A stretch of DNA of 64,000 nucleotides from a virus (lineage: Duplodnaviria; Caudoviricetes), in IMG/VR virus record IMGVR_UViG_3300017987_005478, positions 63,918 to 127,917 of that record. The stretch is one strand, 5' to 3'. Below, piece after piece: positions 28,079 to 28,381 of this stretch (positions within the stretch are counted from its first letter, which is position 1; every line of letters begins with the position of its first letter). The notes under the pieces were generated by a model that did not search any database, had not been told where the DNA came from, and saw nothing but the letters and a program-made list of their open reading frames with translations. A program made the position numbers and the translations under genes.

Positions 28079-28381
28079 CTAATTTGTTGTATGATCGCCG
28101 CTACACGTAATTATGACGCCAATATTACATCCAGCGACCACATCTGTACAACGAGCAACTCCCCGACTATTGCAAAATGTGTCACCACTTGCTGTAACAA
28201 TCACACCTGGGTGCCCACAAAAACCAATGGTGATATCTGAAAGTCTAGCTTGTCCCAAGCTATTGACAGACCGATCAGCACTAGCAGTAATAATCGGTCC
28301 CGCCATGGGAATTCAAGGTGCTGGAGGATGACAACAACAAATTCCCGACCATAAATCAGTCAATCTAGCATTTCCTGGCAT
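28079..28381 (-). CDS. PAAR-like spike tip protein, 100 codons, with in-frame TGA at codon 23
   Basis: RBS AGGAGG then MPGNARLTDLWSGICCCHPPAP*IPMAGPIITAS...; three ARxxD repeats (ARLTD, ARLSD, ARCTD); near gp5-like gene. ORF track shows only the part after the TGA. Confidence 0.85.
28268..28300 (-). promoter_or_regulatory. Candidate bacterial-type SECIS hairpin
   Basis: Starts 12 nt 3' of the UGA: GGACCGAUUA/UGAUCGGUCU 10-bp stem, upper stem UACU/AGUG, apical loop GCU starting 27 nt after the UGA. Confidence 0.5.

Follow-up and report, generated by a model that had tools for sequence, protein, structure and literature searches.

A PAAR gene interrupted by an in-frame UGA codon

This report concerns a gene on the minus strand of a 64,000-nucleotide (nt) stretch of DNA from a large uncultured sediment phage, called the window below, which is the second half of the 127,917-bp IMG/VR virus record IMGVR_UViG_3300017987_005478 (G000; estimated completeness 41%). 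The gene (28079..28381; all coordinates are window positions unless another sequence is named) consists of 100 codons plus a TAG stop codon and encodes the PAAR tip of a phage tail spike when an in-frame UGA at codon 23 (28313..28315) is read through. The original prediction, which was made from the DNA sequence alone, had proposed that this UGA may be decoded as selenocysteine (Sec), which would make the tip a phage selenoprotein.

The signals at the start of the gene are as had been described. The Shine-Dalgarno sequence AGGAGG (28386..28391, minus strand) overlaps the TAG stop codon (28392-28390) of an upstream gene of 243 residues and is followed by a 4-nt spacer and the ATG at 28381. Twenty-two codons (MPGNARLTDLWSGICCCHPPAP; 28316..28381), which include both the CCCH cluster and the first of the ARxxD repeats, lie ahead of the TGA (28315-28313). 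The frame is then open to the TAG at 28081-28079, such that read-through gives the predicted total of 100 codons and three ARxxD repeats (NARLTD, QARLSD, and VARCTD). As also claimed, the list of open reading frames (ORFs) made with genetic code 11 contains only a 75-residue ORF that begins at Met26 (28079..28306); it omits the 22 N-terminal codons and has no purine-rich ribosome binding site before its ATG. This ORF, which the protein collection lists as P0003, represents the C-terminal three quarters of the PAAR gene rather than a separate gene.

A check for assembly error was made using public sequencing runs. An identical 12,186-nt Logan contig was found in each of three runs from three studies at a depth of 16-25, and comparison with window positions 27600-29200 gave no differences over 1601 nt. 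Identical contigs at this depth in three runs exclude an assembly slip, although they do not exclude polymorphism. The data sets listed as containing this stretch included none of RNA.

The read-through product is a complete PAAR tip

Searches of the protein collection gave 55 candidates, of which 54 were relatives of the read-through product at E<=1e-3. Most have 100-101 residues and cover 100% of that product, and the closest relative having Cys at codon 23 is P0002/P0057 (79% identity). Two members of the set are short: P0003, the 75-residue stump of the window gene itself, and P0055, a 63-residue out-of-frame piece of a relative.

The AlphaFold2 (AF2) model of the read-through product, built on the homolog alignment, had a predicted local distance difference test score of 96.1 across 100 residues and a predicted template modeling (TM) score of 0.86. 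Foldseek comparison of the model with the PDB returned PAAR proteins at all of ranks 1-6: E. coli c1882 (4JIW), V. cholerae VCA0105 (4JIV), a phage P1 baseplate protein (9VYI), the Klebsiella phage KP1 protein (9F4B), T4 gp5.4 (4KU0), and phiKZ gp163.1 (6P1Z), with TM scores of 0.59-0.75 and two matches having E<=0.001. The likeness to these spike tips is one of fold; sequence identity to the solved PAAR proteins is only 9-21%, and searching the PDB by sequence gave weak matches only (best E 0.036). The model predicts that the read-through product folds as a complete PAAR cone.

With PAAR tips generally, the protein shares a length of about 100 residues, three repeats, an apical Cys/His cluster, and a gene located beside that of a gp5/VgrG-type spike protein. 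In the family, residues C15, C17, H18, C55, H57, and C85 either do not vary or reach at least 90% conservation and, judged from the alignment, are candidates for the apical metal cluster. Unlike the solved PAAR proteins, the subfamily has a CCCH...C motif plus an extra C16/C23 pair, and in the window protein one Cys of that pair is written UGA. We conclude that the gene encodes the whole PAAR tip of a phage tail spike.

The UGA codon occupies a cysteine column

Homologous loci were collected from IMG/VR (28) and from metagenomes (80), giving 109 sequences with the window. The N-terminal anchor motif was matched by 94 of the 109, L097 failed the second anchor, and collapse of duplicates left 70 unique genes (counted by hand). 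Codon 23 is TGT or TGC in 60 of these genes, encodes Val, Ile, or Pro in eight, and is TGA in two, the window gene and locus L013; none has Trp. The homologous column is therefore that of a Cys, as the original prediction required. IMG/VR was also scanned by pattern for TGA codons at columns 23, 17, 55, and 16, which gave 1, 41, 3, and 24 stretches, respectively. The single column-23 match was the contig of L013. Upon screening the other 68 stretches with the family hidden Markov model, the sole PAAR gene found was L142, which is on the contig of locus L010 discussed below.

Columns 16 and 23 (28334-28336 and 28313-28315) vary together. Among 117 unique proteins (L013, P0003, P0055, and sequences under 85-90 residues being left out and the window UGA counted as Cys), 102 have Cys at both positions, 15 have Cys at neither, and no protein has one alone. 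In the AF2 model residues 16 and 23 are at the two ends of the loop joining the strands formed by residues 10-15 and 24-30. This perfect co-occurrence argues that residue 23 forms a pair with C16 rather than serving as a core metal ligand, and from the model the pair likely serves as a dispensable, disulfide-like staple or as a joint ligand flanking the core of Cys and His residues. The proposal that Sec sits beside the CCCH cluster is refined in that C23 is outside the near-invariant C15/C17/H18 set and instead co-occurs with C16.

The three runs that gave the identical contig (X1-X3) also contain contigs aligning with window 27810-28373 that come from other, related phages, at least two in number. 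One of these phages is about 80% alike and its contig breaks at the site of the L013 insertion (see below). The other has the N-terminal part of the PAAR gene followed by TGT (Cys) at codon 23, and thus UGA and Cys forms are found together in one habitat.

In-frame TGA codons are also present in a second lineage. L010 (also recovered as L106 and L142) is from a 51-kb record of 31% GC (G001) and encodes a distant PAAR homolog of 49% identity in which TGA occupies two near-invariant Cys columns, C17 (L010:3049-3051) and C85 (L010:3253-3255). Its closest relatives (L057, L059-L062, and L085) have Cys at both columns. L010 lacks the C16/C23 pair, having Ala and Pro at those positions. From its sequence, a tip containing two Sec residues is possible, and we treat L010 as supporting evidence only.

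Purifying selection acts on both sides of the UGA

L013 is from a 149-kb record (G002) that is collinear with the window phage, and its PAAR gene has 76% nucleotide identity to that of the window. The original prediction had looked for the TGA and the hairpin to be conserved in several independent homologs. Both features are indeed present at the same codon of this diverged sequence, but L013 is one relative rather than several independent ones.

Comparison of the two genes gave proportions of nonsynonymous (pN) and synonymous (pS) differences of 0.104 and 0.668, respectively, for the whole gene, with synonymous sites near saturation. The values were pN 0.137 and pS 0.80 for codons 1-22, which precede the stop, pN 0.07 and pS 0.62 for codons 24-55, and pN 0.11 and pS 0.64 for codons 56-100. 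By this measure purifying selection acts on both sides of the TGA, and the 22 upstream codons, which the code-11 ORF call omits, are evidently translated. As the signal is seen in every segment, the gene has not been dead since the common ancestor of the two phages.

These values bear directly on decay, in which a PAAR gene that the phage can do without has suffered a nonsense mutation to TGA. PAAR proteins are dispensable in some phages, and a single substitution converts TGT or TGC to TGA. Moreover, the L013 copy has what could be a second lesion, a 7-nt insertion, and L010 is a singleton having two stops. Decay nevertheless fits poorly with pN/pS values of 0.10/0.67 and with a TGA common to two genes across near-saturated synonymous divergence, and selection extends to the 22 codons ahead of the stop. 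It also leaves unexplained a downstream hairpin selected beyond the protein code (below), an otherwise intact frame, and the lack of any other PAAR gene in the records, since G000, G001, and G002 each contain exactly one. Decay is therefore disfavored and we regard it as highly improbable.

A selected hairpin begins 12 nt after the UGA

The hairpin claimed to lie downstream of the UGA (28268..28300) was recovered. Following a 12-nt spacer, a 10-bp stem (28300-28291 paired with 28277-28268) encloses a second, inner helix of 4 bp and an apical loop, GCU, the G of which (28285) follows 27 intervening nt. It is a candidate Sec insertion sequence (SECIS). The 81-nt fold has a predicted stability of -27.4 kcal/mol, with a z score of -2.7 versus dinucleotide shuffles. 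In L013 and the window alike, a stem of 9-10 bp begins 12 nt past the UGA and carries a short inner helix, the loops being AGCAA in L013 and GCU in the window. When the 60 nt after codon 23 were folded, the window and L013 gave -24.8 and -25.7 kcal/mol, respectively, whereas none of the remaining 68 unique homologs went below -16.8.

Synonymous recoding with each phage's own codon usage gave no sequence as stable in 1000 trials for either the window or L013. The two sequences do not differ at any of the 17 stem-arm positions, versus 13 differences at the remaining 43 positions. At third codon positions the counts are 0 of 6 in the stem arms versus 9 of 13 elsewhere (Fisher p about 0.011). The rank among homologs, the recoding results, and the invariant stem arms together argue that the hairpin is selected at the RNA level, beyond the constraint of the peptide. 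It is not a terminator, since no U run follows it. With a G early in a small apical loop just 3' of the UGA, the hairpin is a candidate for a bacterial-type SECIS; a non-canonical loop is no bar to such candidacy.

In L010 the region after UGA17 has a fold of -23.0 kcal/mol, the most stable among 71 unique homologs (the next is -18.6), and none of 1000 recodings matched it. UGA85 is followed by a hairpin of 8 bp whose loop is GGA.

The position of the hairpin is pertinent to a stop-restart scheme, in which ribosomes terminate at the UGA and re-initiate at Met26, 6 nt on, to give a PAAR protein split into pieces of 22 and 75 residues. An ATG does lie two codons past the UGA, the gene caller yields the 75-residue ORF, and purifying selection on both pieces would also be expected of a two-piece protein. 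However, Met26 is nearly invariant throughout the family and so is no special restart codon, and it has no Shine-Dalgarno sequence. The hairpin, of the -20 kcal class, starts 3 nt beyond Met26 and, by the known rules of initiation, should hinder a new start at this codon. Nor does the scheme explain why the stop falls on a Cys codon, and UGA85 of L010 is not followed by a start codon. We therefore view stop-restart as quite unlikely.

A selected hairpin could also stimulate near-cognate read-through rather than bind SelB. A minority of ribosomes would insert Trp, Cys, or Arg from the corresponding tRNA, and the stop would mainly throttle synthesis of a protein of which each virion requires one copy. 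Of the stop codons UGA is the leakiest, and PAAR is a one-copy virion part, both of which suit such a throttle, as does our failure to find Sec machinery in the three phage records (below). A throttle could be placed anywhere in the gene, yet all three UGAs of the two lineages (C23; C17 and C85) are at conserved or co-varying Cys columns, where insertion of Trp would ruin the site. Moreover, the hairpins lie 10-13 nt past the UGAs, the spacing seen in bacterial SECIS elements. Throttled read-through is the likeliest of the alternatives to Sec decoding, but is unlikely.

TGA is otherwise an ordinary stop codon

The statement that TGA is an ordinary stop elsewhere in this DNA was borne out. Minus-strand ATGA sequences are present at 4851, 5463, and 7787, and TGA ends 11 of the 55 long ORFs in the window. 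It ends 24 of 108 long ORFs in G000, 10 of 43 in G001, and 34 of 130 in G002 (22-26%). Reassignment of TGA throughout the genome (codes 4 or 25, or recoding of phage late genes) was rejected, TGA being a normal stop and no suppressor tRNA having been found. The window gene resembles those of phages in which TGA or TAG is sense in late genes in having an internal stop in a structural gene, but differs from them in that one gene is recoded, TGA ends 22-26% of the long ORFs, and a suppressor tRNA is lacking.

A scan of the gaps between ORFs in G000 gave nine candidate split genes, of which four were split by TAG, three by TAA, and two by TGA; TGA splits are thus not enriched, and the PAAR gene is the only convincing TGA-split gene of the record. 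The other TGA candidate is on the minus strand at window 824-1034 (G000:C1:64741-64951), where a hydrophobic ORF of 35 codons ends in a TGA located four codons before the in-frame start of a 69-residue ORF. These are probably two small genes. A 915-codon frame of G001 that is bounded by TAA or TAG and contains one TGA was also rejected, as it consists of two adjacent genes with a ribosome binding site between them.

Selenocysteine as the favored decoding of codon 23

From the sequence evidence we favor decoding of the codon 23 UGA as Sec by SelB/SECIS-type insertion, and assign this reading a probability of about 0.65. In passages of PMC1976440, selenoproteins are called from a UGA/Cys column, a stem-loop, conservation of the UGA, and the existence of Cys homologs. 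The UGA at a Cys column, its conservation under selection, the RNA-selected hairpin, and the second lineage together correspond to what is asked there of a new selenoprotein family.

In the proposed mechanism the ribosome would begin at the strong ribosome binding site and ATG at 28381, and the hairpin at 28300-28268, 12 nt past the UGA, would serve as a bacterial-type SECIS. The hairpin would recruit the SelB-GTP-Sec-tRNA(Sec) complex of the host, such that Sec would be inserted instead of termination taking place. Sec23 would replace a Cys that always co-occurs with Cys16, the two residues bracketing the CCHPPxP loop. It would probably form a selenenylsulfide staple with Cys16, or else serve as a further soft ligand, close by the Cys/His cluster of the tip. 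Owing to the presence of one PAAR protein per virion, recoding of low efficiency would still supply enough. Decoding by SelB and Sec, the partnership with Cys16, and the chemistry are the parts of this scheme that we infer.

Several observations weigh against Sec decoding. The first concern the machinery. ARAGORN found no tRNA genes in G000, one (Thr) in G001, and 12 plus a transfer-messenger RNA (tmRNA) gene in G002, none of which is a Sec tRNA or has a UCA anticodon. None of the three phage records has an Rfam tRNA-Sec match above the cut-off, and the SelB, SelD, and SelA models likewise each matched none of the three, which are fragments 24-48% complete. Nor did any Rfam family reach its gathering score in the window, and at E<=10 the only match over 28180-28400 was at chance level. 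The read-through protein matches PAAR_motif PF05488 with E 1.5e-4 and 22.3 bits, under the 27-bit cut-off; most homologs carry a precomputed PF05488 annotation, and the L010 gene scores above the cut-off at 32.5 bits. Each of the three runs that gave the identical contig carries a flag marking it as a possible source of the record, and minor variants are not visible in contigs. The UGA at codon 23 is common to only two sequences, which are themselves relatives and thus count as one event. L010 is a singleton. The loop of its hairpin after UGA17 lacks a G, and the hairpin after UGA85 is ordinary, ranking 20 of 68 and being equaled in stability by 104 of 1000 recodings. The last 15 codons of L010, with pN = pS = 0.4, give no selection signal.

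The L013 copy, moreover, has a 7-nt frame-breaking insertion after codon 55 (L013:3160-3175; G002:C1 about 70011-70026), and that copy may be in decay or may depend on another recoding event. The insertion recurs in JGI, Logan, and ENA assemblies and produces the out-of-frame ORFs P0055 and P0056. At this site TGT is followed by TGA and then by a second TGT 7 nt on, after which the PAAR frame resumes under purifying selection. This may be a plain frameshift mutation or recent lesion, or a site where ribosomes hop a short distance or shift by +1 at the stop. The matched take-off and landing codons and the stop after take-off are compatible with bypassing of the T4 gene 60 type and no less so with an ordinary frameshift mutation.

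Another possibility is that a SelB/SECIS-dependent system inserts Cys by use of a Cys-charged Sec-like tRNA. Such tRNAs have been described in some anaerobes, and the Cys column, the hairpin, and the selection signals fit equally well; sequence cannot separate Sec from Cys. The system is rare, no such tRNA was found in the records, and Cys insertion by this route would have no advantage over a plain TGT codon. We give it very little credence.

A broader form of Sec decoding can be framed in which PAAR tips are recurrent virion selenoproteins, with lineages independently recoding different Cys residues (C23; C17 and C85 in L010), together with the Sec23-Cys16 staple and, in L013, a 7-nt hop or +1 shift at the TGT-TGA site. 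We offer this composite as tentative; it has an appreciable chance of being right but probably claims too much.

Relation to known selenoproteins

The window gene has much in common with bacterial Sec-UGA/SECIS systems (E. coli fdhF and the bSECISearch consensus): an in-frame UGA at a Cys column, a stem-loop in the coding region just downstream, a G opening a small apical loop, a UGA kept in a diverged homolog, and many Cys-form homologs. It differs from bacterial selenoproteins in that the carrier is a phage and the product a structural virion part rather than a redox enzyme, and in that none of the selABCD genes was found in the three phage records.

In passages of PMC8310308 the only viral selenoproteins named are the poxvirus glutathione peroxidases of molluscum contagiosum and fowlpox viruses, and the fowlpox SECIS is stated to lie inside the coding region. 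These provide a parallel for a viral UGA-Sec gene decoded by host machinery. However, the poxvirus proteins are captured cellular redox enzymes with eukaryotic SECIS elements, whereas the present candidate is a structural protein native to a phage, and its hairpin is of the bacterial type. Literature searches on phage, PAAR, SECIS, tRNA-Sec, and virome selenocysteine found no phage or PAAR selenoprotein, and neither 'phage' nor 'PAAR' is mentioned in main-text passages of BSepDB (PMC13326102; 111 families).

Nearly all selenoproteins known to date are redox enzymes of cells, and a phage virion part containing Sec would widen that range. If our reading is correct, bacteriophages also use Sec, and in a role that is not enzymatic but mechanical or metal-binding. 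On the broader, tentative reading, a Sec23-Cys16 staple could close where a disulfide would not, under the reducing conditions in the cytoplasm of an anaerobic host, and would harden the membrane-piercing tip. On either reading infectivity would depend on the selenium supply and Sec machinery of the host, and host range would be tied to Sec-using bacteria. The protein, having only 100 residues and being present once per virion, would be a small and tractable subject for learning in what respect Sec outperforms Cys, whether in a tip, in a staple, or at a metal site. Note that gene callers shorten such genes, as seen here in the 75-residue stump.

Genomic setting

Megablast searches of the 'phages' collection with the window DNA gave zero matches, and a scan of genome contigs for a relative of the phage found none, hence no host lead was obtained. 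G000 bears the label 'provirus'; its GC content is even along the record and no host-like end was seen. In G002 the 12 tRNA genes and the tmRNA gene (tag ADDYYTEVRLAA) are at the very start of the contig (G002:C1:1153-12330, L121), and the cluster may run past the contig end.

Directly downstream of the PAAR gene is a gene for an N-acetylmuramoyl-L-alanine amidase (27557..28069, minus strand; Pfam Amidase_2, E 3.6e-7, 31 bits, above the cut-off). A spike/hub protein with a gp5/VgrG-type oligonucleotide/oligosaccharide-binding domain is encoded upstream (29925..30818, minus strand; Pfam Phage_base_V, E 1.7e-8, 35.1 bits, above the cut-off), separated from the PAAR gene by two genes. These intervening genes (window 28390-29925) encode proteins of 243 and 263 residues that have no Pfam match at E<=0.01 and are likely to be unknown baseplate or spike-associated proteins.

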